Virus record (IMG/VR): IMGVR_UViG_3300017991_000058
DNA length: 64,000 bases
Direction: 5' to 3' (one strand)
From: an uncultured virus (IMG/VR IMGVR_UViG_3300017991_000058)
Lineage: Duplodnaviria; Heunggongvirae; Uroviricota; Caudoviricetes
The first letter of the stretch is position 1, and each line of letters begins with the position of its first letter. The translations under genes and the position numbers were made by a program. The notes beneath the pieces are model-generated. The model had not been told where the DNA came from. It saw only the letters and a program-made list of their open reading frames with translations, and ran no database searches. This document shows positions 2,711 through 23,846 of the stretch, piece by piece.

Positions 2711-3412
2711 TCAGCCCTGCCGACGATGGCGTCGGAGCGGGATCGGCAGGCTGAGCTGGCGCCCGGCGGCCCGCTCCTCCGCCAGCCTGCGGGAGCGGAG
2801 CCAGTCCTGAAACAGGATGGCGACGGACGGGAACCCGGCGACGCTGGCCGGGCGGCCGTCGGGTCGGACGTACCGGACCCGCCCGCGGATGAAGTCGACT
2901 GCGGCCGCGGGGTAGCGGAGCCTGACGACTCCTCTCTCCGACCTCCGGGCGGAGACGTACCTGAACCACCAGGCCTTCCCGACCTTCGCCGGGAGGAGCG
3001 CGGCGACGAGCTCGGCCCGGCCGGAGACGACCTCGCGGACGGCCTTTGCGACCCACAGCTCCTCCGCCCTGCCGTACGGCGGGTTCATCCAGCACCGACC
3101 TCTCCACGGGAGAGACAGACCGTCGTCGTCGACGGTGAAGTACCTGCTGCAGACGTGGAGCTCAGCGCTGGCCGCGACGTCCAGGTCGAACGCTCCGTCC
3201 GCCCACAGGTCGGCGTACCGGCGGACGAGCTCGTCGGGGGACCCCCACTCCCACGTCTCGGCGGGTAGCAGGAGAGGGCCAACGCGCCGCTCTGCGCCCC
3301 CCTCAGGGCCCGGGAGAGGTCCGGGGGTGCCGGAGACCGCCCCCGGAGCGACGGGCGGCTCGAGACGGAACAGGGCCATCTGGCGTTGAAGGTCGTCGTC
3401 GCTCCAGCTCAT
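2711..3412 (-). CDS. phage N6-adenine DNA methyltransferase (Dam-like)
   Basis: WGSP, FDLDVAA, YFTVDDDGL and catalytic NPPY motif. Confidence 0.85.
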   Translation of the reverse strand: MSWSDDDLQRQMALFRLEPPVAPGAVSGTPGPLPGPEGGAERRVGPLLLPAETWEWGSPDELVRRYADLWADGAFDLDVAASAELHVCSRYFTVDDDGLSLPWRGRCWMNPPYGRAEELWVAKAVREVVSGRAELVAALLPAKVGKAWWFRYVSARRSERGVVRLRYPAAAVDFIRGRVRYVRPDGRPASVAGFPSVAILFQDWLRSRRLAEERAAGRQLSLPIPLRRHRRQG

Positions 3413-3418
3413 GGCACC

Positions 3419-4024
3419 TCACACTATCAGACCGACCTCGTCGCGGATGGCGGCGCCGAGATCGAAGCCGGGCTCGGAGCGGAACGCGTCCCCGTGCTCG
3501 GCCCACGCCACGGCCTGCGTCGCCGAGTCGTACCTGGCCGCCAGGGTCGACCGCGACCACAGTCCGGACGCCTCGAGCACGGCTCTAGCGTACCCAATGC
3601 CGCCCATAGCGACCCGGTCTCGGCCCGGAGACACCCGCCATCTGCACGTCGCCACGGCCTCCCACATCGACTCTCCGGCCCACACGACGGAGAGTCGAGA
3701 CTGAGGCGGAGCGTCCACGGTCTCGGCCATGACACTGACGACGGACACCACCTGGGGGAATCCGGACAGTGAGGCCCACCGGACGGACGCGGACAGGAAG
3801 GCCATCTCGAGCGCTCTTCGGAACCCGGCGACAACCGCGAGCGCGATCATAGGCCGCGGATCGTCCGCCGCCAGCCAGGCGGTCCGAAGGCACCCGCCGT
3901 GCCGATCGACCCACTCCGCGACGAGGCGCGGCGCGGTGCGCCCCTTGACGTGGACGAGATCGCCGCACACGGCGTCGAGCCCGCCCAGCCGCCAGACGGC
4001 GTCGATCCGATCAACGCCCGTCAC
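3419..4024 (-). CDS. hypothetical protein
   Basis: 201 aa ORF in the gene chain. Confidence 0.5.
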   Translation of the reverse strand: MTGVDRIDAVWRLGGLDAVCGDLVHVKGRTAPRLVAEWVDRHGGCLRTAWLAADDPRPMIALAVVAGFRRALEMAFLSASVRWASLSGFPQVVSVVSVMAETVDAPPQSRLSVVWAGESMWEAVATCRWRVSPGRDRVAMGGIGYARAVLEASGLWSRSTLAARYDSATQAVAWAEHGDAFRSEPGFDLGAAIRDEVGLIV

Positions 4025-4445
4025 GATCGTCCCCCGAGACTAGCTTGAACCCGGTCGTGTCGCCGGAGGCCAGCCTGAACACGGTTCCGACGCGGATCGA
4101 CCTGCTCATCCAGACGGCGACCCCGGGCCGAATCAGTACCGGATACACGACGGACTGCGGTGCCGCCGGCGGGACGTACCTGCGGCGCAGGTCCCACACG
4201 ACGGGGGTAACGGCCCGGAACAGGACGTCACCGCCGTAGGGCGAGCCTCCATCGACGTCTCCGACGAGGACGGCGACCATCGCGGCGTAGCCGTCCTCGG
4301 GTACCAGTCGACGCCGCGGCGTCCCGCCGAAGTACTCGTCGACGATCGGAGACGACGTGTAGGCCACGAGGAAGCGCCCCCCGAGACGGTACGCGGCGAC
4401 GACGTCCGCGTCGGCGTGGGCGTCCAGCAGCTCGACGACGTCCAT
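4011..4445 (-). CDS. hypothetical protein
   Basis: ATG at 4445 overlaps upstream TGA; MDVVELLDAH... 144 aa. Confidence 0.5.
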   Translation of the reverse strand: MDVVELLDAHADADVVAAYRLGGRFLVAYTSSPIVDEYFGGTPRRRLVPEDGYAAMVAVLVGDVDGGSPYGGDVLFRAVTPVVWDLRRRYVPPAAPQSVVYPVLIRPGVAVWMSRSIRVGTVFRLASGDTTGFKLVSGDDRDGR

Positions 4446-4771
4446 CAGTTCCCGGCCAGGCGCCAGAGCGCGTCTGCGTAGTCGACGACGACGTCCGCGT
4501 CGGACCTCAGCTCGTCGTACCGAGACGAGCGCCTGCGGACGACGTCGTCGATCATCAGCAGGTTCCCGGCCATTACGGCCGGGTCGCATCCCCCTCCGCC
4601 GATCTTGGCGGCGAGCGACTTCAGCCTTGAGTTGGCGGACTCGGCGAACCAACTCGACGCACCCCCGGCGACGGCCTCGCGCGTCAGCTCGTCGAACAGC
4701 TCGCCGAGGTCGACGTCCAGGGCCCCCAGCCGCCGGATGCTGTCGAGACGGTCGTGCTCGTCCCGGTCCAC
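4445..4771 (-). CDS. hypothetical protein
   Basis: 108 aa helical ORF, tight packing. Confidence 0.55.
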   Translation of the reverse strand: MDRDEHDRLDSIRRLGALDVDLGELFDELTREAVAGGASSWFAESANSRLKSLAAKIGGGGCDPAVMAGNLLMIDDVVRRRSSRYDELRSDADVVVDYADALWRLAGN

Positions 4772-4772
4772 G

Positions 4773-5198
4773 CTACGTCACCTGCCCCCCGAGTCTGACG
4801 AGAGACCCCGCGGCCGAGACGTCGCGCTCCAGGACCGCAACCGCGCCCGCGACGGGCCCCGGGATCGCCACACCCCGCTCAGGCATCAGCCGGGCGAGAC
4901 GGACGACGTACCTCCCGTGGTGGACGAGCTGGCCGCCGGACGGCTTTACGACGACGTCCGCCGTTCGTCGGCGACGAATCGTCTCGTGGGCCATCCACCG
5001 CAGGACACCGGAGGACGACTTCAGCGTGACCGGGGGCTCTCGGCAGTCGATCGGCGGCGAGCGGTCGACCCCGTCGATGTGGTCGACGATCCCGCGGATG
5101 TGCATCAGCTCGTCCGGCCAGAGCGCGTCGTCCGGAAGGGACGTCAGCCACTCGACGGTCTCGCGTATCCGCCGCACCATGTCGCCGCGGAGCGTCAC
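4773..5198 (-). CDS. hypothetical protein
   Basis: 141 aa, GTGA overlap with upstream gene. Confidence 0.5.
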   Translation of the reverse strand: MTLRGDMVRRIRETVEWLTSLPDDALWPDELMHIRGIVDHIDGVDRSPPIDCREPPVTLKSSSGVLRWMAHETIRRRRTADVVVKPSGGQLVHHGRYVVRLARLMPERGVAIPGPVAGAVAVLERDVSAAGSLVRLGGQVT

Positions 5199-5449
5199 CC
5201 CTCGGACTTGCGCTCGGCCGCGGCGGCGGCCCGCCGCTCCCTCATCATCGCGGTGTGCTCCGACCTCCGGACGGCCGATGCCCGCTCGAGCTGCTCGTGG
5301 AGCTCGCCAACCCCGGCGGCGTGGTCGAGGACGATCCGCATCCAGGTGTACATAGGCATCCCGTCCTCGGCGGCGGCCGCCCTCCAGGCGTCGAGCTCCG
5401 CCTGGCTGGCCTTGATGCTCGTCTGCGCGTCGTATCTGGACATCGACAC
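5195..5449 (-). CDS. ribbon-helix-helix-like small regulator
   Basis: TSIKASQAELDAWRAAAAEDGMPMYTWMRIVLD fits a strand-helix-helix pattern; GGAGGG RBS. Confidence 0.5.
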   Translation of the reverse strand: MSMSRYDAQTSIKASQAELDAWRAAAAEDGMPMYTWMRIVLDHAAGVGELHEQLERASAVRRSEHTAMMRERRAAAAAERKSEG

Positions 5450-5506
5450 CCCTCCGTCGGAGACGTTACTGCTCGTCCGCCCGTGAGGCGTACCGACGGA
5501 GACCGG

Positions 5507-6232
5507 TCAGCGGGAGTCCGGGTCTCTCAGAGCGAGCCACGCCGCGAAGTTGTGCCACCGCCAGACGCAGTCGACGTCGGAGAACCCGGCGGCCCGGAGC
5601 AGCTCGACGTTCCACCTGGCCGTCACAGGAACCAGGACCCCCTCGAGCGCCAGGCGCTTTCGCTCTACGTCGTCGCGGGAGTAGCCGCGCCGCTCCTTGC
5701 TCTCGAGATAGGCGTCTACCATGGCGGCGTCGAGCTCCGCGGTGTCGCCAAGCACCTTCTCGACGACGATCGCGGCGCCTCCCGGAACGGTTGACCGGTA
5801 GATGGACCGGACGATCTGGTGGCGGTATTCGATCGGCGTGAACTGCAGGACGAGGACGGCCATCGTGACCGACGCCGACACGTCCGGGTAGCCGCGGCGC
5901 AGGTCGTGGTCCAAGACGACGACGCGGCCGGACTCGATCCCCTCCGCGAACCGCTCCCTGGCGGCGGCGAGCATCGGGGCGGACACCTCGACGCCGACCA
6001 GCCTGCACGTCGAGCCGCGGACGGCCTCGAACCTGGCCAGGGCCTCGCCCCTCGCGCAGCCCAGGTCGACGACGTCCGTCCCGCCCGAGGCGTAGCGGAG
6101 AGCGAGCCCCAGAACGACGCTGCGCATGACCTCGTACTGGGGGATGGACCGCGCCAGCATGTCGTCGAAGACGCGGGTCACCTCTCCGTCGAACTCCCAC
6201 CGGTCCGGAGCATAGCCGGTGTCTCTCGTCAC
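5507..6232 (-). CDS. cmoA: carboxy-S-adenosyl-L-methionine synthase (CmoA family)
   Basis: WEFDGEVTRVFDDMLARSIPQY, DLGCARG, VLQF, PGG..VVEKV, YSRDDVERKRLALEGVL (the KR Arg equivalent to E. coli R199), C-terminal WHNF. Confidence 0.92.
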   Translation of the reverse strand: MTRDTGYAPDRWEFDGEVTRVFDDMLARSIPQYEVMRSVVLGLALRYASGGTDVVDLGCARGEALARFEAVRGSTCRLVGVEVSAPMLAAARERFAEGIESGRVVVLDHDLRRGYPDVSASVTMAVLVLQFTPIEYRHQIVRSIYRSTVPGGAAIVVEKVLGDTAELDAAMVDAYLESKERRGYSRDDVERKRLALEGVLVPVTARWNVELLRAAGFSDVDCVWRWHNFAAWLALRDPDSR

Positions 6233-7617
6233 TTCGGACCTCCGACAAGTCGCTTGAACTCCGCGGCGTAGTATCTCCGCGGGTCACCGACGGCGGCGGC
6301 CGCGGCGCCCTTCAGCCCGGCGCCGTCCTGGAACGCCAGCTTTGGCCTGTGCACGACGCGGTCCGGGAGCAGCCCGGAGTAGGCCCGCGACATGACGGCC
6401 TTCGGGCGTCCCCTACTCGCCACGGCGCTCTGGGGGAGAGACAGCGCGAACTCGACGAGACTCGTGTGGAGAAACGGAAGGCGGCACTCCACCCCGTGGG
6501 AGAGAAACACCTTGTTGCACCTGGCGAAGTTCTTCCGGTGCTGGTCCAGAAAGGTGCGCTTCCTGTACGCGTGCCAGCCGAACTTATGAACGCCGTGGTA
6601 GCTGAACCCGTAGCTGGCCATGAGCTCGTCCGCCCCCTCCCCACTGAACGTGACCTTGAACCCGTCGGCGCTCATGGATCTGGCCAGGTGGAGGCACGCC
6701 CACCCTATCTCCACCTGGGCCTTGTGGGGCATCTCGATCCGCCGGACGACATCGGAGAGGTCGTCCGCAGTCGGGGCCGGGACGGCGATCTCTCTCAGCT
6801 CCGTCCCGAGCCGGTCGGCGACCTCGCGGGCGGCCAGGAGGTCCGGGCTCTTCGGATCGCGGTACGCGACGAACGCGACGACGTCGGGAACATGAGACAC
6901 CAAGTGGGACAGGACCGAGCTCGAGTCGATCCCGCCGCTCAGGAGAGCGCACACGGGGACGTCGGAGATCGACCTCTCGGCGACCCCGGACGCGATCTCC
7001 ATCCGCATGCGCTCCGCGGCGGAGTCGAGCGTCGTCTCTGCAGGAGCCGCCGGCGCGTCGTACCATCTCTCGACGGACATCCCGCCGGAGCCGTCGATCT
7101 CGACGACCGTGCCGGGCTCGACCCACGTGGCGGCGGCCGGGGGGAGCCCGGCGGCGGCCACGGCCCTGATCTCCGATGCGAAGGCCACCCTTCCGCCCAC
7201 GCGCGCGACGTGGAGCGGAACCTCCCCGAACCTGTCCCGCGCCAGCCTGAGAGTCTCTCCGTCCGCCCACGCCACGGCGAACATGCCCTCCATCCGCGAC
7301 AGCCCGGCGACGCCCCAACGGTCCAAAACGGCTGCGACGACCTCCGTGTCCCCGTCCGTGCAGAACGACTCCCCCAGAGACTCGAGCTCGGCTCTCAGGC
7401 CGAGATAGTTCCACAGCTCTCCGTTGTAGGAGACGGTGACGTCGCCGCGCGAGAACGGCTGGTCGCTGCGAGAATCGAGGTCCAGGATCGCGAGCCTGGT
7501 GTGACCGAGCCAGAACGGCCCGACGCGGACGACTCCGATCGCGTCGGGACCCCTGTGGCGCAGCGCGGCCACGGCCGCGTCGACGGGGTCTCCGACCCCT
7601 CCGACTACCCCGCACAC
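6229..7617 (-). CDS. asnB: asparagine synthetase B-like glutamine amidotransferase / ATP-dependent amide ligase
   Basis: N-terminal MCG nucleophile, HRGPD, GHTRLAILD, YNGELWNY, DTEV, RDRFG, LLSGGIDSS PP-loop, SGEGADE, VECRLPFL. Confidence 0.9.
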   Translation of the reverse strand: MCGVVGGVGDPVDAAVAALRHRGPDAIGVVRVGPFWLGHTRLAILDLDSRSDQPFSRGDVTVSYNGELWNYLGLRAELESLGESFCTDGDTEVVAAVLDRWGVAGLSRMEGMFAVAWADGETLRLARDRFGEVPLHVARVGGRVAFASEIRAVAAAGLPPAAATWVEPGTVVEIDGSGGMSVERWYDAPAAPAETTLDSAAERMRMEIASGVAERSISDVPVCALLSGGIDSSSVLSHLVSHVPDVVAFVAYRDPKSPDLLAAREVADRLGTELREIAVPAPTADDLSDVVRRIEMPHKAQVEIGWACLHLARSMSADGFKVTFSGEGADELMASYGFSYHGVHKFGWHAYRKRTFLDQHRKNFARCNKVFLSHGVECRLPFLHTSLVEFALSLPQSAVASRGRPKAVMSRAYSGLLPDRVVHRPKLAFQDGAGLKGAAAAAVGDPRRYYAAEFKRLVGGPK

Positions 7618-8066
7618 TCGGCCGCCTCCGCCAGGAACCGCCGAGCCGCCTCGACGTTGACGGGGTTGTTCCAGAACCTGACGATCCCGGACGGGTGCGG
7701 GATGACCGCGATCTCGGCCGGCCCGTCGAGCGCGCCGGAGACCCAGACCATGAACCCGATGCGGTCGACTCTGACTCCCAGCGACTCGGCCATCCGTCTA
7801 GACGCCAGAACGACGCGCCTGCCTAGAAGCTCCATCCGAGACCGTCTCCAGGCCCTGCGGACGGCCGACTTCGGAAGGGAGTCGCCCTTGCGGCCGCCGC
7901 TCCGGCCGGGCCACTCGGACAGCAGGTTGGCCGGCTCGAACATCGCCAGAAGTTCGCCGTGGTCAACGCCTGCGATCTTGGCCAGCCGCCTTCCGCTGTC
8001 TCCGGAGAACGGTCTTGACGGGTCGGACTTCCTGCTCGGCGCCTCGCCCAGAATGACGACTCTCAT
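7605..8066 (-). CDS. uracil-DNA glycosylase superfamily protein (family 4-like, no Fe-S cysteines)
   Basis: ATG at 8066 overlaps MTase stop; ILGEAP, PFSGDSG, IPHPSG motifs. Confidence 0.75.
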   Translation of the reverse strand: MRVVILGEAPSRKSDPSRPFSGDSGRRLAKIAGVDHGELLAMFEPANLLSEWPGRSGGRKGDSLPKSAVRRAWRRSRMELLGRRVVLASRRMAESLGVRVDRIGFMVWVSGALDGPAEIAVIPHPSGIVRFWNNPVNVEAARRFLAEAAECAG

Positions 8067-9481
8067 GGCCTCGGGCTCCCGGCGAGAACGCCGGCCAGCG
8101 CCCTGGCGACGGCCATCATCATCGGCGGCGGGACGGCGCGGCCGAGGCGCTCCCACTGCTGGGAGTACGAACCGACCAGCCGGAAGTCGTCGGGGAACCC
8201 GCAGATCCGCCGCAGCTCGGCGATGGAGAACTTCCTCCGCTCCGTCGGATGGATGACCCCGGCCGCTCCCGGATTCCCGGCCGTCTGGGTCACCGTCGGG
8301 CACGGGCGGTCCGGATGGGCCCGCACGAGGTTGAAGTACTTGTCCGACTGCTCGCCCGGCTTCAGCTTCCGGCTCGCCTTGTCGATGGCGTAGCCGTCCA
8401 GAGGGGCTCCGGTCTCGACCCTGGGGTCGTCGCTCTCGACGAAGAACCTCGGGTCCTGAGCGCAGACGGCCGGGAACGGCGACTCTGGGTCCAGCCGCTG
8501 CCCCTTCGACTTGAACGGCGCCCCCATGCCGCGGACGACCGTGAGCTCGGACTGGGTCTTCGGGCGGTTGTGCGTCATCACCGTCGGGACCGGGAGGTCT
8601 ATGGACCGCTCCCCCTTTGAAGTTCCGACGGACGTCTCGATCTCGTGGCGATGGTAGCCCGCACCGCGAGCCGTTGTGACGGTCGGCGCGGGGCGGTCCG
8701 CAGCGTCGAAGTCGTAGCCCTCGAAGTACCCGTGGCCCTCCGACCTGAACCTCCCGATCCACGGGCACGCGTCTCTCAGCGAGTAGCGATATCCGAGCGG
8801 GCGGGGGAACGGAATGTCTACGTCCGGCGCGACGTCGTCTCGCAGCCCGACGAAGATCAGCCGCTTCCGGACCTGGGGGACGCCGAGCCACTGAGCGTCG
8901 AGCTCTCGAATCGCCACGCGATACCCGCACTCGACGAGGCGGCCGTAGATCTCTTTCAAATAGCCCTTCGCCTTGCCGGCCCGGAGCCCCGGGACGTTCT
9001 CCGCGACGAACGCGCGCGGTCTTATCCCGTCGACGATCCGCGCGAACTCCCAGAACAGGTCGTCGGTCCTCTGGACGGTCGAGCTGTACTTCTTCTCCTC
9101 ACCCCAGTGCTTGTCTCGCTTGCCGGCCAGAGAGAACGACGCGCACGGAGGGCTCCCCTGGACGACGTCGATCTCCCCGACGCCCATCCCGACGGCGGCG
9201 AGGATGTCGGACGGGTCGACGGAGCGGATGTCGCTCGAGTCGACGGGGCAGTCCGGGAAGTTCATCTCGTGGACGGCGCGCGCCTCGGCGACGAACTCGC
9301 TGGCCCACAGCACGCGATACCCTGCCCACTCGAACCCAAGACAGCTCCCCCCGGCCCCGGTGAACGTAGAGACGACGGTGAGTCCGTTGGTCCCGGCCGC
9401 GGCCCGGATCTCGCCCATGGACGGGATCGCGTAGGGCGGGCGCTCGTCGGAAGCGGCGGGGGCTGATTCGTCCGGCATCAC
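8063..9481 (-). CDS. C5-cytosine DNA methyltransferase fold enzyme, probable carboxymethyltransferase
   Basis: motif I FTGAGG, IV GSPPCASFS, VI ENV, VIII QVRKR, IX ELRRICGFPD; motif X is GRAV instead of GNAV. Confidence 0.9.
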   Translation of the reverse strand: MMPDESAPAASDERPPYAIPSMGEIRAAAGTNGLTVVSTFTGAGGSCLGFEWAGYRVLWASEFVAEARAVHEMNFPDCPVDSSDIRSVDPSDILAAVGMGVGEIDVVQGSPPCASFSLAGKRDKHWGEEKKYSSTVQRTDDLFWEFARIVDGIRPRAFVAENVPGLRAGKAKGYLKEIYGRLVECGYRVAIRELDAQWLGVPQVRKRLIFVGLRDDVAPDVDIPFPRPLGYRYSLRDACPWIGRFRSEGHGYFEGYDFDAADRPAPTVTTARGAGYHRHEIETSVGTSKGERSIDLPVPTVMTHNRPKTQSELTVVRGMGAPFKSKGQRLDPESPFPAVCAQDPRFFVESDDPRVETGAPLDGYAIDKASRKLKPGEQSDKYFNLVRAHPDRPCPTVTQTAGNPGAAGVIHPTERRKFSIAELRRICGFPDDFRLVGSYSQQWERLGRAVPPPMMMAVARALAGVLAGSPRP

Positions 9482-9518
9482 GGTCTCCTATGCAGACACA
9501 GTACGACAAGGGCCCCGG

Positions 9519-10700
9519 TCATCGAAAGGTCTCCAGCATGCGCCAGAAGTCCGGGTAGGACTTGGACACGCACCCGGCGTCGCGTACCGTCACGCCGGGA
9601 ACGCGGAGGCCGACGAGCCCGAAGGCCATGGCCATCCTATGGTCCCTCTCCGGGTCCAGCTCGACGCCGCCCCTGAGCGGGCCGGGCCGGATCGTCAGGC
9701 CGTCTACCCGCTCCTCGGCCCGGGCGCCCAGCTTGACGAGCTCGCGGCACAGCACGGCGATTCGGTCGCTCTCCTTGACCCGCAGGTGCTCCGCTCCGAC
9801 GATCGTCGTCTCGCCGTCGGCGAATAGAGCACAGGCGGCGACCGTCGGGGCGAGGTCCGGTGCGTCGCGAAGGTCGATCCGCCGCCCGACGCCACTGACA
9901 ATCGACTCGAGGAGCTCCGGGAAGGCGCGGTCGCCCTGCGCGGAGTCTGGGGCGACGTTCGACACCTCGACCCGCCGCCCCGTCAGGAATCCGGCCGCCA
10001 GCGGATAGCTGGCGCTCGACCAGTCCCCCTCGACTCGAAAGCGCGTCGCTCTCGGCCCGCCGGGCCAGACGCGGAATGCCCCGCCCCGCCTCTCGACGCG
10101 GACGCCGAATCTCTCCATGACGCCCAACGTCAGGTCCACATAGGGACGCGACGGAACGGAGCCGACCACCTCGATGTCGATCCCGCCGGGCAGCCCGGCA
10201 CCCATCAAGAGCAGCGCCGACAGCTCCTGGCTCGACAGCCCGGCGACGATCCTGGCGCGGACGCGTCCCCGCGAGTCGACCGCGCGGCCGTCTAGCGCCA
10301 CGGGGGGGCAGCCCGGCCCGCCCCGCTCCTCGACGTACACGCCGAGCCCGCGGAGAGCCGACAGGAGGGCGGGCATCGGACGACGACGCATGGCGAGATG
10401 CCCGTCGACAACGTAGGACCCTGTCACCACGGGTGCCAGCCCGGTGATGAACCGCACCGCCGTCCCGGCGTTCCCAAGAAGGAGCGTAATCGACGGCGCC
10501 CGGAGCCGCGCAGGCGGCCTGACGGTCCAGGTCTCCGCCTCGTCGTCGACGGAGACTCCGAGAGCGCGCAACCCCGCGACCATGGCCCGGCTGTCGTCGC
10601 AGTCCAGAGGACACTCGACGACGCACGGAGACTCGCCAAGCGCGGCCAGCACGATGGCGCGCTGCGTCACGCTCTTCGACGGCGGGACGCTGACGATCAC
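9519..10700 (-). CDS. aroA: 3-phosphoshikimate 1-carboxyvinyltransferase (EPSP synthase)
   Basis: PPSKSVTQRA, LGNAGTAVRF, RRPM, SSQ, PSRPY, EGDWSSASY, HLRVKESDRI, DHRMAM, KSYPDFW; GTG at 10700 overlaps upstream TGA. Confidence 0.93.
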   Translation of the reverse strand: MIVSVPPSKSVTQRAIVLAALGESPCVVECPLDCDDSRAMVAGLRALGVSVDDEAETWTVRPPARLRAPSITLLLGNAGTAVRFITGLAPVVTGSYVVDGHLAMRRRPMPALLSALRGLGVYVEERGGPGCPPVALDGRAVDSRGRVRARIVAGLSSQELSALLLMGAGLPGGIDIEVVGSVPSRPYVDLTLGVMERFGVRVERRGGAFRVWPGGPRATRFRVEGDWSSASYPLAAGFLTGRRVEVSNVAPDSAQGDRAFPELLESIVSGVGRRIDLRDAPDLAPTVAACALFADGETTIVGAEHLRVKESDRIAVLCRELVKLGARAEERVDGLTIRPGPLRGGVELDPERDHRMAMAFGLVGLRVPGVTVRDAGCVSKSYPDFWRMLETFR

Positions 10701-11296
10701 CTGGGCTGGCCGTCCCACTCGTAGCCGCACTTCGGGCACTGGTACTGGCACTCGGCGGTCGGGTCTATCGGGGTGAAGTCGCCCGGAGGTTCGACGGTGT
10801 TGGCCCCCGCCGAGGCAATCAGGGTCTCGGCGAGCCTATCGATGTCGTCCGCGTTGAATCCGACGCCCCTGAGCGCGGCGTCGCTCTGCTCGTTCAGGTC
10901 CGAGAGGATCGCGTGCAGCTTCTCGTCGTCCCAGCCGCCGACCTCGCCGAGCCTGTTGTGGGCGAGGATGTACGCCTCCGCCTCGAGCTCCGACTCGAAC
11001 GCGATCCCCCGCAGGACGGGAACGAGCCACTCCCCGTCCTCGTCGACGCGGATGCGCTCCGGAGGGTCCACCCCGTCGTCGCGCATCGAGATCAGCGCGT
11101 CGACCCGGCCGTGGCCCTCGACGAGCCGTCCGGTGTTCTCGTCGACGGCCACGGGGTCGTTGAACCCGAACCTGTCTGCCGAGTCGGCGATCCCGTCCTC
11201 GTCGTGGGTCTTCGGGTTGCGCGGCCACTGCACCACATCCGACAGAGGACAGTAGTCGATCCAGAGCTCACCGCTCTTCCGTGCGTCGTCAGCCAT
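10697..11296 (-). CDS. ParB/Srx-like N-terminal domain protein with C-terminal Zn ribbon
   Basis: WPRNPKTH, FGFNDPVAVD, LVEGHGRV, ILAHNRL; ends CPKCGYEW. Confidence 0.8.
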   Translation of the reverse strand: MADDARKSGELWIDYCPLSDVVQWPRNPKTHDEDGIADSADRFGFNDPVAVDENTGRLVEGHGRVDALISMRDDGVDPPERIRVDEDGEWLVPVLRGIAFESELEAEAYILAHNRLGEVGGWDDEKLHAILSDLNEQSDAALRGVGFNADDIDRLAETLIASAGANTVEPPGDFTPIDPTAECQYQCPKCGYEWDGQPR

Positions 11297-16376: not shown

Positions 16377-18941
16377 TCACGCGGCGAGCTCCCACGGCTC
16401 GAGATCGCCCAGGGTCGGCCCGACCTCGATGTCGACCTTCAGCGGGACTCCGCACGAGTCGTGGCTCTGCATGATGTCTCTGGCGCCCAGAAGGGTCTCC
16501 TCCATGGCGTCCTCCCTGATCTCAAATATCACGCTGTCGTGGACGGTTAGGACCAGCTTGGCCGGGACGCCGTCTCCGAGAATCCAGTCCACGATGTCGC
16601 AGATCGACGCGAGCATGAAATCTGACGCGGTCCCCTGAACCGGCGTGTTGACGGCGCTGTTCTCGGCGGTCGACCGCTTCAGGCTGTCTCTCGACGCGAT
16701 CCCTATCAGCGGTCTTCTGCGGGCGCGCTCGCCGGCCCACCACGTCCAGGCGAATCCGGTCCGACGGGTCTCCTTCAGCCGAGACCTCATCCACGAGGCC
16801 AGCTTGACCCACTTCCCGAGGATCGCCTGGCGGAGCCTCACGGCGTCGTCGAGCGAGCAGTCCAGACGCCGCGCCAGCCCCTTGTCGGTCATCCCGTACA
16901 GCAGCCCGAAGTTGAAGCTCTTCGCGGCCGTCCTGTGGGACTTATCCACCTCGTCCGGAGAGATCCCCCAGTAGATCGGAGCGATGAGCTTCGCCGTCGC
17001 CGTGTGGAAGTCCTCCCCGGACAGGAACATCTCGATCATGACCGGGTCGCGCGACAGGAACGCCGCCCCTCGGAGCTCGATCTGGCTGTAGTCGAGCTGC
17101 CCGAGGAGATACCCAGGAGGCGCCACGAAGCTGCGCTTCACCGCACGCCCCTCCTCGCTGTAGGTCCGCGGGAGGGTCTGTAGCGGCGGGTTTATCACGC
17201 TCAGGCGACCCGTCCTGGTCCCGTCGATCTTCAGCTCCGGGTGGATGCGCCCGTCCGACCTTATCCACGACGCCATTGAGCGGCCGTAGTTGCCGCGGAG
17301 CTTCTCGATTCGACGGTATTCGACGAGGTCCCCGACGACCGGGTGCTCGTCGATCATGGCGTTCAGCGCCTCCCGATCCGTCGACGACCGCCCTGTCGCA
17401 GTCGTCTTGGTCGGGGTCAGTCCGAGCCGCTTGAACAGGAGGTCGGACACGCTCTGAGGGCTGCTCGGATCGAAGTCGCCGTACACCGCGAGCCGCGCGC
17501 GTACCGACTCCAGCTCCATGTCGCAGTACTCGTGGAACGTCTCCATCGCCGAGCGGTCGGCGGCGACCCCCCACCGCTCGATCTGAGCCACGGCGTCCGT
17601 CGCCCTGCTGACGATCAGGTCCCAGACTCTCTTGATCGGAGGGTCGGCGGCGATCTCCCCCTCGAGCAGGTCCCCCAGCCTGGCGGTCGCCACCGCGTCG
17701 CGGGCGCAGTACCGATCGCGCACGGCGCTCGGAACGAGCGCGTATGCAAACCGCATCGGATCGTCGTCCGGCATCAGCGCGACGGCGGCCTCCAGCGCCG
17801 GATCTCTGACCCCCCCGTCGAACAGCGACCCCTGCCCCACGCGCTCCGCCGCCCTCGCGGTCCGGATCTCTCTCTCGGCGACGGCCAGCGCCGCGGCGTT
17901 CTCGTCCTTGTGGCCGCCCATTCCGACCAGGTGAGAGCAGACGTCGAGCCGTGCGTTCACGTCGGCGACGACGAGGCGGCGCCACAGGCGGGTGTCCCCG
18001 TGAGTCCCCGCGACGCGGCACCCCCAGGCCGCCCAGACGGCCAGGTTGTCCCCCTTCAGGTTGTGCCCTACCTTCCCGACGGACGGGTCCTCGAGCAGCT
18101 CGACCAGCGGCGCTCTGACGTCCGGGTCGCCGAGCACGGAGCGCGGCCACACGTAGGCGTCGTCGGTCCCGCTCGGGACGACGGCAACGCAGGCGATCTC
18201 AAAGTACTCCCCGAACGGGACCCCGGCCCACTCGACGTCGTATGCGAACCACGGCGACTCGGCGCGGATCTCCTCGACGGCCCCGGACGCGTCGTCGACG
18301 GTCTGGACGACGTGCAGCTCGGCGTCCAAGGGCGGCGGCGGAGGGTCCGGAGAGCCCAGCGCCCATGCGAGGTCCTCCTCGAACCACCGCCCGACAAACC
18401 TGTTACGAGACGCCGCGGCGGGGTGAATGCAGTAGTAGACGGGGACCAACCGCCCGCTGACCGGAAGAGCCGCCCAGGAGTAGCCGCGCCGCGTCGACAT
18501 CATAGGAACGGAGTGCCCGAGCAGCCCATCGACGGCGTCGCCACCCATCGCGACGATCCTGGTCGGCGAGACGTCCACCAGCGTCTGTCTAAGGTACGGC
18601 CTGCAGGCGGCGATCTCGTCCCGGGTCTGCTGTCCGCCGGCCGGCCAGCACCGAGTCACGTTCTCGTAGGCCACCGGGCCGTCCCACATCTTCGGAACGA
18701 GCTCCCGGAGCTTCTTCGACGACGCACCGACGAACAGCCGCCCGCGACGGTCCTCGTCCTTTCCGGGATGCTGCCCGACGAATAGCACACCCCCGGGCTC
18801 CCCCTCGGCGGGGAGACACGGGTTCTTCACGGCCGGGAGCCGTGCCCGACGGCAGCGCCTGCACCGAGAGTTCAGCTCGAGCCTAGGGCCCGAGCTGATC
18901 GGAGACGTGGGGCTCTCCGGATAGAGCGGGAGAGACCTCAC
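16377..18941 (-). CDS. polA: family A DNA polymerase with N-terminal UDG-like domain and 3'-5' exonuclease
   Basis: N-term CRRC, VGQHPG..ED...FVG, HPA; exo YDVE, GHNLKGD, YCARD; pol DYSQIELR, RTAAKSFNFGLLYG, VHDS. Confidence 0.92.
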   Translation of the reverse strand: MRSLPLYPESPTSPISSGPRLELNSRCRRCRRARLPAVKNPCLPAEGEPGGVLFVGQHPGKDEDRRGRLFVGASSKKLRELVPKMWDGPVAYENVTRCWPAGGQQTRDEIAACRPYLRQTLVDVSPTRIVAMGGDAVDGLLGHSVPMMSTRRGYSWAALPVSGRLVPVYYCIHPAAASRNRFVGRWFEEDLAWALGSPDPPPPPLDAELHVVQTVDDASGAVEEIRAESPWFAYDVEWAGVPFGEYFEIACVAVVPSGTDDAYVWPRSVLGDPDVRAPLVELLEDPSVGKVGHNLKGDNLAVWAAWGCRVAGTHGDTRLWRRLVVADVNARLDVCSHLVGMGGHKDENAAALAVAEREIRTARAAERVGQGSLFDGGVRDPALEAAVALMPDDDPMRFAYALVPSAVRDRYCARDAVATARLGDLLEGEIAADPPIKRVWDLIVSRATDAVAQIERWGVAADRSAMETFHEYCDMELESVRARLAVYGDFDPSSPQSVSDLLFKRLGLTPTKTTATGRSSTDREALNAMIDEHPVVGDLVEYRRIEKLRGNYGRSMASWIRSDGRIHPELKIDGTRTGRLSVINPPLQTLPRTYSEEGRAVKRSFVAPPGYLLGQLDYSQIELRGAAFLSRDPVMIEMFLSGEDFHTATAKLIAPIYWGISPDEVDKSHRTAAKSFNFGLLYGMTDKGLARRLDCSLDDAVRLRQAILGKWVKLASWMRSRLKETRRTGFAWTWWAGERARRRPLIGIASRDSLKRSTAENSAVNTPVQGTASDFMLASICDIVDWILGDGVPAKLVLTVHDSVIFEIREDAMEETLLGARDIMQSHDSCGVPLKVDIEVGPTLGDLEPWELAA

Positions 18942-19663
18942 CCCTGGATGTCCAGGACACTGCAGGCTCGCCGGACGCGGTCCTCCAGGTTCTTTATCCG
19001 CGCGAGAACCGGGACGTCGGCCTGATGCTCCGCGCATCTCTCGACGATGGCGTCCACGGTCGTCGCGATCCCGTTGTCGTAGAAGTACGACACGATGTGT
19101 CGGAGCTGCTTGGCCCCGACGAGCTCCGGCGGCAGTCCGTCCTGTGCCGGAGCGGCGGTCTCTTCAGCGGGCTGGGGGTCGGACTCGGGAGACGCGCCGG
19201 TTGGCTCCGTCGCCGACGGGTCTAGCTCGACGTCGTCCTGGACGCTCGGCTTCCCGCGCTTCTTCGCCGGAGCGGACCGAGCCTTTGACTTCGACTCGGA
19301 TGCGGAGGCTCTCTTCTTCGGATCGGCGGCGGGCGCTCTCTTCTTCGGCTCGGCCTTCGGCTCGGCCTTCGGCTCGACCTCCGGCTCGGTCTCGACGGGC
19401 TCTCCGTGAGACGAACCCCCTACGCGCACGCGAGTCCCGGCCCTCGCGGTCTCGACGACCAGCTTGGTGGCGCCGTCGGCACCGTCCGCGACGTCGAGCT
19501 GGGCGACGTCCCCCGTCGACAGGCGCCTCAGGATCATCAGCGCGTCCTCCGCGGACAGCGCCTCGATCGCCAGCCGGCTCGACCGCGCGTCGAACGTCAC
19601 GGTTCGGATCGTCCCGATGACGTCGGCGGTCGCCTCGAAGCTGTTCACTCTCTGGATGGCCAT
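18938..19663 (-). CDS. hypothetical protein with Lys/Ala/Pro-rich linker
   Basis: AAGGAGG RBS; KAEP repeats between two globular-looking parts. Confidence 0.7.
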   Translation of the reverse strand: MAIQRVNSFEATADVIGTIRTVTFDARSSRLAIEALSAEDALMILRRLSTGDVAQLDVADGADGATKLVVETARAGTRVRVGGSSHGEPVETEPEVEPKAEPKAEPKKRAPAADPKKRASASESKSKARSAPAKKRGKPSVQDDVELDPSATEPTGASPESDPQPAEETAAPAQDGLPPELVGAKQLRHIVSYFYDNGIATTVDAIVERCAEHQADVPVLARIKNLEDRVRRACSVLDIQG

Positions 19664-19697: not shown

Positions 19698-20585
19698 TCA
19701 TCCGACCGCGCGGCGCGCCTCCTCTACGAGCCAAGCGGGGTCCACGTCGTTCGGGTCGGTCTTCGGGGGGAGGTGGACCCAACCCGCCCTTGCACCGTCG
19801 AAGGCCAGCCTTGCGGCGAGCATCTCCGCCTCGAGCCACGCGTCGCCGTCTAGGACGACCACGATCGGACGCGGTGCCGACAGCAGGGCCGAGACCTGAC
19901 CCTCGGACGGCTTTCCGAACAGGGCGACCGCGTCCGGCCAGTACGGGAGCGCGTCGAACATCCCCTCGACGACGAGCGCAGGGACGTCCGTCTCGACGGC
20001 GAGCGCCGCTGGGTTGTAGACGTTCGACTCGCGGTCCATCCCCGTGGCCGAGACGTACTTGAGCTGGCGCCCGCGCGGCTCGGTCCACAGCCGCGCCTGC
20101 CATCCGACCCACTCTCCGTCGATCGTCAGGAGCGGAGCGACGACTCTCCCCCCGACGGCGCCGGACAGGCAGGCGCCGATCCTGGCCTCCTCCACCGTCT
20201 GAGACGACACTCCGCGATCGGCGAGATACCGACGAGCCGGCGCGAGGGAGATCGCGCTAGAGCCGGGCTCTCGCCAGAGCGGCTCCCAGTCGGGCGGCGG
20301 CCCGAGCTCCGGGTCGGCGCCATGAGCCGCCCGATCGAGCCTAGGGGGCGCGTCGTCGTCCGCCCCGGCCGTCGATATTCGGCCCCAGCAGCCGCACCGA
20401 AAGCAGTGGAACTTCCCCGACGAGAAGTGCACTCCGAGCGCGGCGTGCGGGTCCGGGGTCCCGACGACGGACGGACAGATCGGACACGGAGCTCTCCCCC
20501 ACCCCGTCGGGCCGACGCGAGAGACCGACCGGGCCGCGCGCTCGACGACGGTGAGCTCGGCGCTAGAAGAGATCCGCCTGCCCAT
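19698..20585 (-). CDS. DNA primase (Zn-binding + TOPRIM)
   Basis: CPIC...CFRC, VVEGMFDA, LDGD, DPND. Confidence 0.85.
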   Translation of the reverse strand: MGRRISSSAELTVVERAARSVSRVGPTGWGRAPCPICPSVVGTPDPHAALGVHFSSGKFHCFRCGCWGRISTAGADDDAPPRLDRAAHGADPELGPPPDWEPLWREPGSSAISLAPARRYLADRGVSSQTVEEARIGACLSGAVGGRVVAPLLTIDGEWVGWQARLWTEPRGRQLKYVSATGMDRESNVYNPAALAVETDVPALVVEGMFDALPYWPDAVALFGKPSEGQVSALLSAPRPIVVVLDGDAWLEAEMLAARLAFDGARAGWVHLPPKTDPNDVDPAWLVEEARRAVG

Positions 20586-22389
20586 CCTCGGCACTCTCCG
20601 CTACTGGGGCGATCCTCGCGCACTCGAACTCCGTGGGTAGCGACACCACTCCGCCGCGCTTCCCGCCGCGGTTCTTGGCGATCCTGTACTCTACCTCGTC
20701 GTCGGACGCGTTCAGGGCGATCCACAGGTCGGCGACGCGGATCTTGTGCTGGGAGTCCGCCGCGTCGTCGGCGCCCTGCTTCTCGGTGGACTTGGACCTG
20801 CGGCGGCTCTGCGACGCGGTCCACGACCACCCGCTCCGCTTCACCGCGAACTCCTCGCGCAGCCCGCCGTAGACCTCACGCATCCCCTCGTAGTCTCGAG
20901 ACTTCGAGTGCCCCAGAAGGTCGGCGTAGTCGACCACGAGCGCGTCGACGCCGATCCCCTCCCGCTGCTCGACGGCGTCGACCCACGTGATGAGGTCCGA
21001 CACCGTCGTGACCTCCGGCGCGAACTGACCGACGAAGCACGAGCCGCGCGGCGGGAGACTCTCCAGACGCATCAGGGCCTCCGACTCCATCGACCCGTCC
21101 GCGATTCCGTCGATCGGCACCCCCGTCAGGTTCGCGATGAGCCGAGTCAGCCACTGCTCCTCATTCAGCTCCAGCGTTGCGACCAGAACGTTCCGCCCCG
21201 ACAGCAGGGCCGAGCCCGTCACGTGGCACAGGAACATCGAATTGTGCGTCACGGTGAAGTCGCCAAGGAGATATCGCCCGTCGCCGTCGAGCGTGAACCC
21301 GAAGTACGGCTCCCGAATGCCTGTCGGGACAACGTCGAATCCGGTCAACAGCACGTTCTTCCGCTGGCGCCGCGGCCTGACTTCCTTCCGTCGGACGCGC
21401 ACCGGGATCTCGTCGACGGGCGCACGCCACAGCTTGAAGTCTCGCCTGCGCCTGACCGGCCATGACAGGTAGTCGCGGACCGACACATCGACGACTCGGC
21501 CGCCATACCTCGCGACGCCGGGGCGGCCGGTCCCGACGAGCGTCAGGATGTGGTCGGCGTTTACCCTCCACGGCTCGCCGCGCAGGGGACGGACCTCGTA
21601 CATCTCCCCCTCGCCGCGGCTCGTCGCGAGAACGTTCCTGACCTTGCCCTCCGGGGCCATAAGCCGGTCCCAGACGCGGACGTCTTCGACCAGCTTGACG
21701 GACCCGTCCGCCATCAGAATCTCCTGGCCGGCGGCATGGCACTTGCCGTCGCCCGCCCCTCCCATCACGACGGACAGCGTCCCGACGGGAGGACCTCCGG
21801 AGAGCTCGCAGTCGAGCTCGCTGATGCCCGTCGGCAGCTTGTCCGTCCGCCTTAGCCGCCGGATCGCGTCGAGCGCCTTCGGACCGAGCTGAGTCCCGGC
21901 CACGATCTGACTGGCCCCGAGCCTGACCGTCGCCTGCAGGTGCTCGATCACGTCCTCGAGATCCCCCTCCCGAGACCCCACGCGGCGCATCGCGAGACGG
22001 ACCGCCTCCCGGTTTCTCCGCTCCTTGATCACCGGAATGAGCTCGTCCCCGACACCGTCCGGGTCCGGAGGGTCGTCCATATCCTCGAGCTCGTCGACGA
22101 GGTCCCCGACCGCAACGACCTGCTCGTGGGTTACGCGCCCCTCGTGGCGCCACCTAGAGACGCGCTGGACGACGATGGTCCCCGACCCAGGTCCCTTGCC
22201 CGTCTCCGCCCCGACGGCCTTCGCCGCAAGGGCTACCAGCCTGGCGGCGTCTCCGGCGAACGCGTCCGGCTCGACGGTCGCGCCGACCCGCGCCCAGAAC
22301 CCCCGGTCGAACACGAGGTGGCGCAGGACGGCCTGTTGGAACTTCGGAGCGAATCGATACGGCTCCGCCTTCTGCTGCTGGTCTGCCAT
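20563..22389 (-). CDS. dnaB: DnaB-like replicative helicase, intein-containing
   Basis: LPTG..ELD, Walker A GGAGDGK/S split by intein, TLE, VVDYADL, TASQ, AKNR. Confidence 0.87.
   Translation of the reverse strand: MADQQQKAEPYRFAPKFQQAVLRHLVFDRGFWARVGATVEPDAFAGDAARLVALAAKAVGAETGKGPGSGTIVVQRVSRWRHEGRVTHEQVVAVGDLVDELEDMDDPPDPDGVGDELIPVIKERRNREAVRLAMRRVGSREGDLEDVIEHLQATVRLGASQIVAGTQLGPKALDAIRRLRRTDKLPTGISELDCELSGGPPVGTLSVVMGGAGDGKCHAAGQEILMADGSVKLVEDVRVWDRLMAPEGKVRNVLATSRGEGEMYEVRPLRGEPWRVNADHILTLVGTGRPGVARYGGRVVDVSVRDYLSWPVRRRRDFKLWRAPVDEIPVRVRRKEVRPRRQRKNVLLTGFDVVPTGIREPYFGFTLDGDGRYLLGDFTVTHNSMFLCHVTGSALLSGRNVLVATLELNEEQWLTRLIANLTGVPIDGIADGSMESEALMRLESLPPRGSCFVGQFAPEVTTVSDLITWVDAVEQREGIGVDALVVDYADLLGHSKSRDYEGMREVYGGLREEFAVKRSGWSWTASQSRRRSKSTEKQGADDAADSQHKIRVADLWIALNASDDEVEYRIAKNRGGKRGGVVSLPTEFECARIAPVAESAEDGQADLF
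21241..21741 (-). mobile_element. mini-intein (167 aa) in the helicase Walker A motif
   Basis: starts CHAAGQEILMADG, block B VNADHIL, ends DFTVTHN followed by Ser. Confidence 0.9.
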
Positions 22390-22406
22390 CGCACCCCGTC
22401 TGACCG

Positions 22407-23846
22407 TTATTGCTCATCCGCCCAGATGAAGGAACCCCTCGCAGCGTCGGCGGACAGTCTCGCGCTCTCGGCGGAGCACCGATCGTGGACGTCCGCCAGC
22501 ACCTGCGCGGCGTTGGACGCCCCACGCGGAAACTGGACGGCGACGATCTCTGCGACGTCTGCGTCCGTCACTCTCCCCAGCCGCTCTGCGACTAGCCGCC
22601 CGAGCTCCCGCTCGACTCGCTGGACGCGGCGGGAGAGCTCGAGCCCGACCGGGTCGTATCGAATCCGCCCTCCGAGCGACGTCCCGGAGATCCGGAACAG
22701 CCTGCGGACGCGCCCGTCTCCGACCCGTCCGGCCGACATGACGCCGGGGATCTGGACCTTCCGCCCCGAATGCCGGTCGCGCCAGTAGCAGAGCTCCCAG
22801 ACGAGCCAGGCGGCCGGAGCGACCTCCTTGTCGGCGCAGGCCCGCCACCATCCGACGACGGTCGACGTCAGCCTGGACCTCCCGCCGGCGGCGACCCCGT
22901 TCATCCGCATGTCGGACGAGCCCGACACGAACCTCGTTGCGCCGCGCCACAGGCGGGCGACGTGGGCCAGGACGGCGGCGTCCTCGAGACCGGCGTCGGC
23001 GGCCGGCGGATGCGGAGTCCGGATCGCGAGCTCGGCCCGCCTTCCGTCGGCGAGGAGGAGCCGCGGGACGACGTCGAGCCGGAGCAGCTCCTTCAGAGAC
23101 CGGACGTCAGACTCGCCGCCGCCGCACTCAGACTGAACGTCAGGATCGTCAGAGACGGCCGTTCCGACGGCGTCTGACACGGACTCCGGACCGACACCGC
23201 AAGTCAAAAGCGACGGGCGTGCGCCAGCGCGCGCGCCATCGAACGAGCGAGCGAAGCGAGCGAGTGAAGATCTATCCTGGTCTATACCCCCTACAGGACT
23301 ACTCCCCTGCTTACTGGGGCCCACTTGAATTCCGTTATAGGGCCCACTTGAATTCCGAGGCCCTTTTAGGGCCCACTTGATTTCCGAGCCATCGCCAGGT
23401 GCGATCTCTGAGCTGTCTTCTGCAGTTAGCTGCCCTCTATGGCCCACTTGATTCTTTCTGTAGGGCCCACTTGATTCTTTCGAGGCTCGGACGGAACGTT
23501 CGGATCGACGTCTCCCGGCCCCGTCGCGGCGTCCGCCCCATCCGGACGACTCCCGAAGGAGCCTCCACACGTCGGGTGGAACGTTCGCTGCGTCTCCCGC
23601 GATGAGTCTCCCGCGGACCGTCCTCGACGGGTCCCGCCGCGACGCGGCTCTCGTTATTAGGCGAACGGATCGGAGCCGCGTGAGCCCCGCTCGGACCTGC
23701 TTCGTCGACAGGCCGGATCGGGCCGCCATCTCCGCACGAGTGAGACGGACCGTCCGCCGGCGGTCCGCCGCGGCGGAGAGCTGCTGCCACAGCGCCATCG
23801 CCGACGGGCCCAGCGCCCGCCGCAGCTCGGCCACGGAGACCCTCAC
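22407..23846 (-). CDS. HTH replication initiator-like protein carrying internal iterons
   Basis: N-terminal HTH LTRAEMAARSGLSTKQVRAGLTRL; internal AT-richer repeat zone; upstream of helicase/primase. Confidence 0.6.
   Translation of the reverse strand: MRVSVAELRRALGPSAMALWQQLSAAADRRRTVRLTRAEMAARSGLSTKQVRAGLTRLRSVRLITRAASRRDPSRTVRGRLIAGDAANVPPDVWRLLRESSGWGGRRDGAGRRRSERSVRASKESSGPYRKNQVGHRGQLTAEDSSEIAPGDGSEIKWALKGPRNSSGPYNGIQVGPSKQGSSPVGGIDQDRSSLARFARSFDGARAGARPSLLTCGVGPESVSDAVGTAVSDDPDVQSECGGGESDVRSLKELLRLDVVPRLLLADGRRAELAIRTPHPPAADAGLEDAAVLAHVARLWRGATRFVSGSSDMRMNGVAAGGRSRLTSTVVGWWRACADKEVAPAAWLVWELCYWRDRHSGRKVQIPGVMSAGRVGDGRVRRLFRISGTSLGGRIRYDPVGLELSRRVQRVERELGRLVAERLGRVTDADVAEIVAVQFPRGASNAAQVLADVHDRCSAESARLSADAARGSFIWADEQ
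23318..23474. repeat. five direct GGCCCACTTGA repeats, putative replication-origin iterons
   Basis: copies at 23318, 23341, 23370, 23441, 23464 in an AT-richer stretch, next to a GAGCGAGCGAAGCGAGCGAG tract at about 23245. Confidence 0.8.

Follow-up and report, generated by a model that had tools for sequence, protein, structure and literature searches.

A predicted CmoX-type cytosine C5-carboxymethyltransferase in a six-gene cassette of an uncultured myovirus-like phage

The window analysed here is a stretch of 64,000 nucleotides from an uncultured tailed phage (IMG/VR record IMGVR_UViG_3300017991_000058). Its gene cmoX, at 8063-9478 on the minus strand, very probably encodes a DNA cytosine C5-carboxymethyltransferase of the CmoX type, as judged by homology. 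An initial annotation of this DNA had proposed that an arginine in motif X of the enzyme, at a position held by asparagine in C5-methyltransferases (C5-MTases), selects carboxy-S-adenosylmethionine (Cx-SAM) as the cofactor. The assignment draws on direct observations, namely the sequence itself, the alignment of the arginine with R350 of a solved CmoX, a fold match, the order of the surrounding genes and the covariation of the arginine with cmoA, the gene for a Cx-SAM synthase homologue.

The selectivity switch is already published for the family (Yang et al., Nat Commun, December 2025, PMC12783734). It has been reported that SpCmoX of Synechococcus phage S-B43 makes 5-carboxymethylcytosine (5cxmC) at GC sites with Cx-SAM supplied by the CmoA of the phage, and that CmoY, an asparagine-synthetase-like ligase, subsequently attaches glycine (PMC12783734). 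In the 1.9 A structure 8YF3, R350 replaces N304 of M.HhaI and directly contacts the carboxymethyl group of Cx-SAM (PMC12783734). The wild-type enzyme accepts Cx-SAM only and the R350N variant accepts neither S-adenosylmethionine (SAM) nor Cx-SAM (PMC12783734). The arginine-to-asparagine exchange suggested by the initial annotation is therefore not expected to restore methylation. The same study published 5,615 candidate CmoX proteins, selected by an SPPC motif and the R350 equivalent, with 4,257 CmoA, 2,251 ligases and 1,660 ParB-domain proteins on their contigs (PMC12783734). In a literature search, CmoX was found together with CmoA in that paper only.

Excerpts of PMC13288465 describe saturation mutagenesis at N374 of M.MpeI, in which a cationic side chain was best for Cx-SAM use, together with a modelled salt bridge. 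Yang et al. noted that the arrangement in SpCmoX mirrors that of M.MpeI N374K (PMC12783734). Both sources agree with the carboxymethyltransferase activity that the initial annotation had attributed to this mutant. The rule that a motif X asparagine-to-arginine change denotes a Cx-SAM user is readable from raw DNA, and structural work reached the same switch in 2025.

The motif X arginine of the window enzyme

The reverse complement of 8126-8155 reads TGG GAG CGC CTC GGC CGC GCC GTC CCG CCG and encodes WERLGRAVPP, so that the ERLGRAVPP stretch and the arginine codon at 8138-8140 are as first described. The frame 8063-9481 (minus strand) is open throughout, and public gene calls begin one codon later, at the ATG at 9478. 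The arginine is R448 in the numbering of protein P0001 and R447 counted from the ATG. A frameshift or assembly artefact was considered as the origin of the arginine and rejected, as the identical protein is recorded on four contigs and its frame is uninterrupted. The remaining signatures of the enzyme class, stated to be intact in the initial annotation, are present in the translation and across 34 aligned homologues: motif I (F40-x-G42-x-G44-G45), motif IV (SPPC), motif VI (ENV) and motif VIII (Q203-x-R205-x-R207). The arginine lies near the C-terminus and is invariant across this alignment. A wider set of 121 proteins was made up of the query, an identical copy and the 119 relatives that scored best in the database, and 118 of them have both arginine and SPPC. 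Three depart from this pattern, namely P0041, which has asparagine, P0070, which does not contain SPPC, and P0099, for which no motif call was obtained. P0041 (583 aa) is the sole asparagine form among the 119 best relatives and contains RLGNAVPP at residues 91 and 547; it may represent a partial duplication or a fusion of two genes.

SpCmoX (8YF3) was the top match when all PDB sequences were searched with the window protein by phmmer (E 4.3e-60), followed by an E. coli prophage MTase (E 2.9e-21). In the alignment, window ERLGRAVPPPMMMAV is paired with 8YF3 ERVGRMVPPLMMKAI, a stretch that ends at chain residue 363, placing the paired arginine at residue 350. ERLGRAVPP of the query thus stands opposite ERVGRMVPP at chain residues 346-354, and R448 is paired with R350. 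The motif X asparagine of mouse DNMT1 (3PT9, QVGNAVPPP) and that of 3G7U, the prophage MTase (QIGNSVSP), also stand opposite the window arginine. These three alignments bear out the claim that the arginine occupies the motif X asparagine position. M.HhaI was aligned over its N-terminal half only in the phmmer search, and the equivalence to N304 therefore rests on the structural overlay in PMC12783734. The further proposal that the arginine pairs with the carboxylate of Cx-SAM gains support from the match of R448 to R350, the residue in contact with the carboxymethyl group (PMC12783734).

An AlphaFold2 model of the window protein, built with 34 homologues, has a mean predicted local distance difference test score (pLDDT) of 70.7, with the catalytic core mostly above 85. 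Foldseek returned 8yf3, the Cx-SAM-bound form of CmoX, as the best PDB match of this model (E 5.4e-22), with probability 1.00 to C5-MTases. Similar to SpCmoX, the window protein has the C5-MTase fold with its Pfam domain and motifs, the SPPC motif (S110-P-P-C113, equivalent to S95-P-P-C98), arginine at the motif X asparagine position and a neighbourhood of cmoA and an asparagine-synthetase-like ligase gene. SpCmoX, at 372 aa against 471 aa, is approximately 100 residues shorter, and the target-recognition region of the window protein is longer by approximately 90 residues. As this additional stretch is poorly modelled, the GC specificity of SpCmoX need not apply to the window enzyme. M.MpeI N374K, for which Cx-SAM use was shown, likewise has a cationic residue in place of the motif X asparagine. 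It is an engineered, CpG-specific enzyme (used in DM-Seq) from a different C5-MTase branch and carries lysine, whereas the window enzyme is natural and carries arginine.

Arginine and neighbouring cmoA

The relationship between the motif X residue and cmoA was recorded in two sets of loci. Set 1 comprised 90 loci from viruses or phages, each encoding a close CmoX homologue, and consisted of 89 IMG/VR contigs and Streptomyces phage TurkishDelight. Six-frame open reading frames (ORFs) were searched with profiles grown from the window proteins, and the residue aligned to R448 was read. Arginine was present in 83 loci, 81 of them with CmoA, and asparagine in seven, all without CmoA even at E 1 (Fisher's exact p 4.8e-9). 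Set 2 comprised 80 loci from bacterial and archaeal genome assemblies, representing prophages and phage contigs in metagenome-assembled genomes (MAGs) of Verrucomicrobiota, Planctomycetota, Acidobacteriota, Streptomyces, Nonomuraea and others. CmoA, searched for at E 1e-5 in this set, was found in 59 of the 61 arginine loci and in none of the 12 asparagine loci (Fisher's exact p 4.9e-12). Seven further loci gave no residue call, either through a missing C-terminus or as distant Bacillus matches.

With both sets pooled, CmoA accompanies 140 of 144 arginine loci and 0 of 19 asparagine loci (Fisher 3e-21), and all three Fisher values overstate the evidence because the contrasts trace to approximately three switches. 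The counts are a clean rule with few independent events. They supply the enrichment of arginine-type MTases beside cmoA that had been suggested as a check. Among the arginine loci that do not have CmoA, the contig of L026 starts inside cmoX and encodes the identical CmoX found in L027, which has CmoA upstream, and the two contigs of set 2 stop right after the start of the cassette. The rule held in every examined locus with a long enough contig, with the exception of L032.

In cultured phages, a tblastn search with the window CmoX gave 40 best records, of which 36 are among the CmoA-positive records listed (60 listed, from 82 of 50,697 phage records); motif X was read in the other four. S-CRM01 (two records) has arginine and an adjacent CmoA-like gene. 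Moraxella phage Mcat8 (L097) has arginine and, as the next gene, a divergent CmoA-like sequence that matches TIGR00740 below the cut-off (E 9e-19). Pseudomonas phage vB_Pae_U8 has asparagine and no CmoA across the whole record. In Mcat8, a phage of M. catarrhalis, the genes at 3499-5699 for a ParB-like protein, the arginine-type MTase (ERMGRMVAP) and the CmoA-like protein are all annotated as hypothetical proteins. The Erwinia, Dickeya and Yersinia jumbo phages (~260 kb, e.g. KY984068) have a CmoX-like gene at ~30 kb and cmoA at ~12.7 kb, ~18 kb apart. The CmoX-like gene was matched in three pieces across 2 kb, which may reflect an insertion in the MTase gene.

The asparagine-type sisters (L056, L060, L064, L068, L087, L089, L090, L131-L133 and others) are 41-47% identical to the window CmoX. 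They share the upstream ParB-like gene and SPPC with the window and differ in motif X, where they have GNAV or GNSV. At none of the 19 asparagine-type loci was a gene for CmoA, a ligase, chorismate mutase or a UDG-like (uracil-DNA glycosylase-like) protein found. The sisters are presumably plain methyltransferases, and their retention of the ParB-like partner implies that this pairing is independent of the cofactor. Such natural arginine/asparagine sister pairs with a common ParB-like partner are material for the study and engineering of cofactor choice in DNA methyltransferases. Many of the asparagine sisters (L060, L064, L068, L087, L089, L090, L137, L145, L164) have WARxGN for WERxGR, an alteration of the glutamate four residues before the switch. 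Other sisters (L056, L131-L133 etc.) retain this glutamate (WERLGNSVPP). The glutamate, as a second-shell residue, may covary with the cofactor switch.

The cassette, its predicted product and alternative readings

The cassette consists of six minus-strand genes, encoding the ParB-like protein, AroA, CmoX, the UDG-like protein, the ligase and CmoA, separated by -4, +40, -4, -13 and -4 nt (Table 1). The CmoA homologue is encoded three genes downstream of cmoX. For this protein TIGR00740 leads all other families by 35 orders of magnitude in E, and the top PDB matches, with E-values between 1e-27 and 1e-26, are YecO (1IM8) and CmoA of E. coli (4GEK). On this basis the protein would be expected to work like CmoA.

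Table 1. Features of the cassette (window positions) and chorismate mutase genes of other loci
Feature	Position	Strand	Evidence
cmoA, carboxy-SAM synthase homologue, 241 aa	5507..6232	-	TIGR00740 E 5.2e-42; phrog_4752 E 3.4e-62
cmoY-like glutamine-hydrolysing asparagine-synthetase-type ligase, 462 aa	6229..7617	-	PF00733, PF13522, PF13537
153-aa protein of the UDG superfamily, flanked by cmoX and the ligase gene	7605..8066	-	PF03167 29.8 bits vs 24.3; phrog_12275 E 1.6e-23
cmoX, DNA cytosine C5-carboxymethyltransferase homologue, 471 aa	8063..9478	-	PF00145 E 5.7e-50
Motif X WERLGRAVPP	8126..8155	-	Arg codon CGC 8138-8140
Motif VI ENV (E161)	8993..9001	-	sequence and 34-homologue alignment
Motif IV SPPC, catalytic Cys113	9143..9154	-	S110-P-P-C113 invariant in 34 aligned homologues
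aroA, EPSP synthase, 393 aa	9519..10700	-	TIGR01356 362.1 bits vs cut-off 287.25; PF00275 E 6.9e-93
ParB_N-like protein, C-terminal zinc ribbon, 199 aa	10697..11296	-	phrog_620 ParB-like E 4.2e-31
Chorismate mutase examples	L013:4619-4927; L002:534-803; L069:4204-4509; L041:13389-13694; L037:2993-3292; L101-L111 etc.		

Homologues of the ParB-like protein occur in 87 of 91 loci, 90 of which have CmoX, and four of the five homologues scanned match PF02195. The window protein itself gave no Pfam match even at E 1, and gp122 of TurkishDelight is likewise without a Pfam match. The ParB-like identity of the window protein is settled by the PHROGs match and by its homologues. In TurkishDelight (NC_073473), gp121-gp125 follow the same order as the window with a ParB-like protein, an MTase (WERIGRAVPP), a glutamine-type ligase and CmoA. 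The MTases are 42.5% identical and the ligases (gp124 in TurkishDelight) 49.8% identical. Unlike the window, the cassette region of TurkishDelight yielded neither aroA nor a UDG-like gene in the searches, and the annotation there names only the ParB-like, methyltransferase and amidotransferase genes.

The window ligase belongs to the glutamine-type branch. By exact look-up gp124 is UniRef A0A7T0Q3R0, which represents the second-largest ligase cluster of Yang et al.; this cluster has a glutamine-hydrolysing domain, which presumably supplies ammonia, and a soluble enzyme was not obtained (PMC12783734). As in that cluster, the window ligase combines an asparagine-synthetase domain with an N-terminal glutamine amidotransferase domain, lies in the cassette with cmoX and has cysteine as the first residue after methionine, starting (GTG)-Cys-Gly. 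This N-terminal Cys-Gly argues for ammonia as the nucleophile. SpCmoY joins glycine, whereas the window ligase has a glutamine amidotransferase domain. The ligase provides a lead in that its product is probably an amide. A literature search did not find 5-carbamoylmethylcytosine in DNA, its one relevant match concerning a different base. If the prediction is true, this base would be a cytosine hypermodification not yet observed in any DNA.

Another component of the cassette is AroA, a 5-enolpyruvylshikimate-3-phosphate (EPSP) synthase that matches TIGR01356 over its full length (residues 19-408 on profile positions 2-411 of 415). Its closest relatives are bacterial, those named being from Deltaproteobacteria or Bradymonadales MAGs. 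They are 61% identical, from which it follows that aroA is neither a recent capture nor the product of a chimeric assembly. No PHROG family matched the protein. AroA matches were found in 14 records out of 50,697 from phages, and most of these are host-like pieces or fragments that bear no annotation. A metagenome scan with P0001 gave two loci, both copies of L002, neither of them close to the window or with aroA.

The slot occupied by aroA, between the ParB-like gene and cmoX, is used by a different shikimate-pathway enzyme elsewhere. A survey of genes that recur around the viral cassettes, and a profile search of the genome set, detected a type II chorismate mutase (PF01817, ~100 aa) in 32 of 170 cassettes, comprising 13 of the 90 viral and 19 of the 80 genome-set cassettes. 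In 11 of the 13 viral loci it lies in this slot (L013-L019, L065 and L074, which form one clade, L069 and L002); L037 and L041 carry it just after cmoA. The genome-set chorismate mutase is also found between the ParB-like gene and cmoX. All nine of the ORFs run through Pfam exceed the gathering score of CM_2. The loci are all of the arginine type with CmoA, save one contig too short to call, and chorismate mutase is present in none of the 19 asparagine-type loci. A search of the window for chorismate mutase found none (best E 0.84 with hmmsearch --max), and its Pfam-scanned ORFs include no other shikimate gene, these searches covering 64 kb, about half of the 127.6-kb contig. Neither SAM synthetase nor further shikimate enzymes were seen beside other cassettes among 96 + 67 cluster representatives, a scan that left single-locus ORFs outside.

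Chorismate mutase forms prephenate, which is the co-substrate of CmoA. The position of these genes suggests that the phages carrying them top up prephenate, and that the window phage would do so one enzyme further upstream. The presence of AroA in a cassette slot otherwise used by chorismate mutase is seemingly new. The main text of PMC12783734 contains no mention of chorismate, EPSP or aroA, and its four supplementary files none of chorismate, shikimate, prephenate or EPSP. A literature search did not find chorismate mutase, CmoA and phage together in any paper. Shikimate-pathway enzymes within the cassette provide a lead on how phages supply prephenate for genome-wide modification. If the proposed role is true, AroA or chorismate mutase in the cassette would answer the prephenate-supply question left open by the discoverers of CmoX.

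The start of the UDG-like gene overlaps the cmoX stop (ATGA), and residues 2-141 of its product exceed the gathering cut-off of PF03167. UDG-like homologues adjoin CmoX or form a fusion with it in 11 of the 90 viral loci, and one of the 80 genome-set loci has such a homologue. The gene directly follows cmoX in L022, L041, L066 and L088, and it is fused to CmoX in L030 (9896-11917) and in the database protein P0102 (PF00145 and PF03167 by Pfam labels). In L024, L026, L027, L028, L032 and L045 it lies on the opposite strand at the end of the cassette. C5-MTases starved of cofactor deaminate cytosine, and Vsr, encoded beside Dcm, is a precedent for a repair partner. By this analogy, the UDG-like protein might, at a guess, repair deamination products of modified or attacked cytosine, or products of mis-modification. 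The UDG-like gene in a CmoX cassette seems to be new and is a further lead; the main text of PMC12783734 mentions no glycosylase, aroA or UDG-like gene, its supplementary files not having been searched for UDG.

The underlying mechanism may be outlined from the solved homologue and from gene context. Cys113 would attack C6 of the cytosine, with the glutamate of ENV and the arginine of motif VIII holding the flipped base. The motif X arginine, in place of the asparagine that sits beside the transferred group, would pair with the carboxylate of Cx-SAM, and a carboxymethyl rather than a methyl group would be placed on C5 to give 5cxmC. The CmoA of the cassette would make Cx-SAM in situ from SAM and prephenate, and the EPSP synthase would most likely increase the flux to chorismate and prephenate. 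The ligase is predicted to adenylate the new carboxylate and to amidate it with glutamine-derived ammonia, yielding 5-carbamoylmethylcytosine, and the ParB-like and UDG-like proteins may assist on the DNA. The six genes together are tentatively proposed, at somewhat less than even confidence, as a self-sufficient module for 5-carbamoylmethylcytosine that feeds its own cofactor pathway through EPSP synthase and includes a UDG-like repair partner.

Several points count against these proposals. Cofactor use by the window CmoX would be carried over from its homologue SpCmoX, and the target-recognition insert (residues 269-362) has pLDDT below 50 in the model. The window CmoA scores 144.2 bits against the TIGR00740 equivalog cut-off of 193.3, so strict membership of the family is not reached. 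L032 has arginine, but CmoA is missing from the 9.6 kb upstream and the 3.5 kb downstream. A tree of 158 homologues needs just three asparagine/arginine changes and offers one independent pair on well-supported branches; the asparagine state on a 91-homologue tree likewise needs three changes. With too few switches, significance in a sign test or in independent contrasts of arginine against cmoA is out of reach. At least one record is common to the two sets of loci (L084 = L138). Of the two patterns used to search for loci, one contained arginine, which biases the ratio of arginine to asparagine but not the association with cmoA within each class. An ordinary SAM-dependent C5 methyltransferase, with a neutral arginine and a cmoA that serves tRNA modification or another role, would fit the intact methyltransferase motifs and the placement of the protein by NCBIfam in the dcm superfamily only. 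It is nevertheless highly improbable: arginine is invariant in cmoA-linked homologues, asparagine occurs only where cmoA is absent, and the nearest solved protein takes Cx-SAM alone. With regard to tRNA modification, no CmoB was named in the Pfam scans or in the NCBIfam scan (eight cassette-region proteins), no search having been aimed at CmoB.

The carboxymethyltransferase assignment is also compatible with an end product other than the amide. 5cxmC might be kept, with the ligase serving as a metabolic asparagine synthase, or another amine might be attached. The ligase exceeds the TIGR01536 asparagine synthase cut-off (273 vs 267 bits), and because it passes this threshold for true asparagine synthases the amidation of DNA can be offered only as a prediction. 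The lack of a soluble enzyme from the A0A7T0Q3R0 cluster and the attachment of glycine by SpCmoY (PMC12783734) point the same way. Set against them, the ligase gene is translationally coupled within the cassette, glutamine-type ligases adjoin CmoX in 23 of the 90 viral loci, the ligase, at 462 residues, lacks ~90 of the length of E. coli AsnB (553), and the N-terminal Cys-Gly of N-terminal nucleophile (Ntn) amidotransferases is retained. A non-amide product is thus rather unlikely, though it carries appreciable weight. A slightly larger share of doubt attaches to the role of AroA, which may be a passenger, a host-derived gene that landed in the cassette with no link to the supply of Cx-SAM. 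AroA was not found in any of the 170 other CmoX cassettes sampled (90 + 80), none of the four IMG/VR loci with AroA has CmoX or CmoA, and one pathway step need not increase prephenate. A supply function is favoured by the slot itself, which holds the prephenate-forming chorismate mutase in other cassettes. The GTG start of aroA overlaps the ParB-like stop by 4 nt, its third-position G+C (0.85) resembles that of its phage neighbours, the TIGR01356 equivalog cut-off is exceeded, and identity to any bacterial AroA is at most 61%.

Phage background and other window genes

The window is 69% G+C with nearly all genes on the minus strand. It encodes a tail tube, a sheath-type baseplate, a tape-measure protein and other structural proteins, as well as a gp32-like single-stranded DNA-binding protein, RecA, SbcC, a family A polymerase and two helicases. 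The phage is contractile-tailed and myovirus-like. No near-identical DNA for window 5400-10900 was found in the phage collection, and the DNA polymerase has no cultured-phage relative above 28% identity. With this window the CmoX family gains an uncultivated phage lineage that is myovirus-like and high in G+C.

Further genes of the window relate to DNA processing and modification. The family A DNA polymerase at 16377-19163 (minus strand) contains an N-terminal UDG-superfamily domain (PF03167 E 1.9e-16) before its 3'-5' exonuclease and polymerase domains. The DnaB-like helicase at 20563-22413 (minus strand) has a Hint/intein domain (PF05203), and the ResIII/SNF2-type helicase at 23851-25848 (minus strand) has Hint/intein domains PF07591 and PF14890. 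A group 1 glycosyltransferase at 63367-63999 (minus strand), which also matches GT4-conflict PF20706 (E 1.1e-15), runs past the end of the window. A phage Dam-type N6-adenine DNA methyltransferase is encoded at 2711-3412 (minus strand; PF05869 E 9.7e-18), 2 kb downstream of the cassette. The phage probably has a second kind of DNA mark as well.

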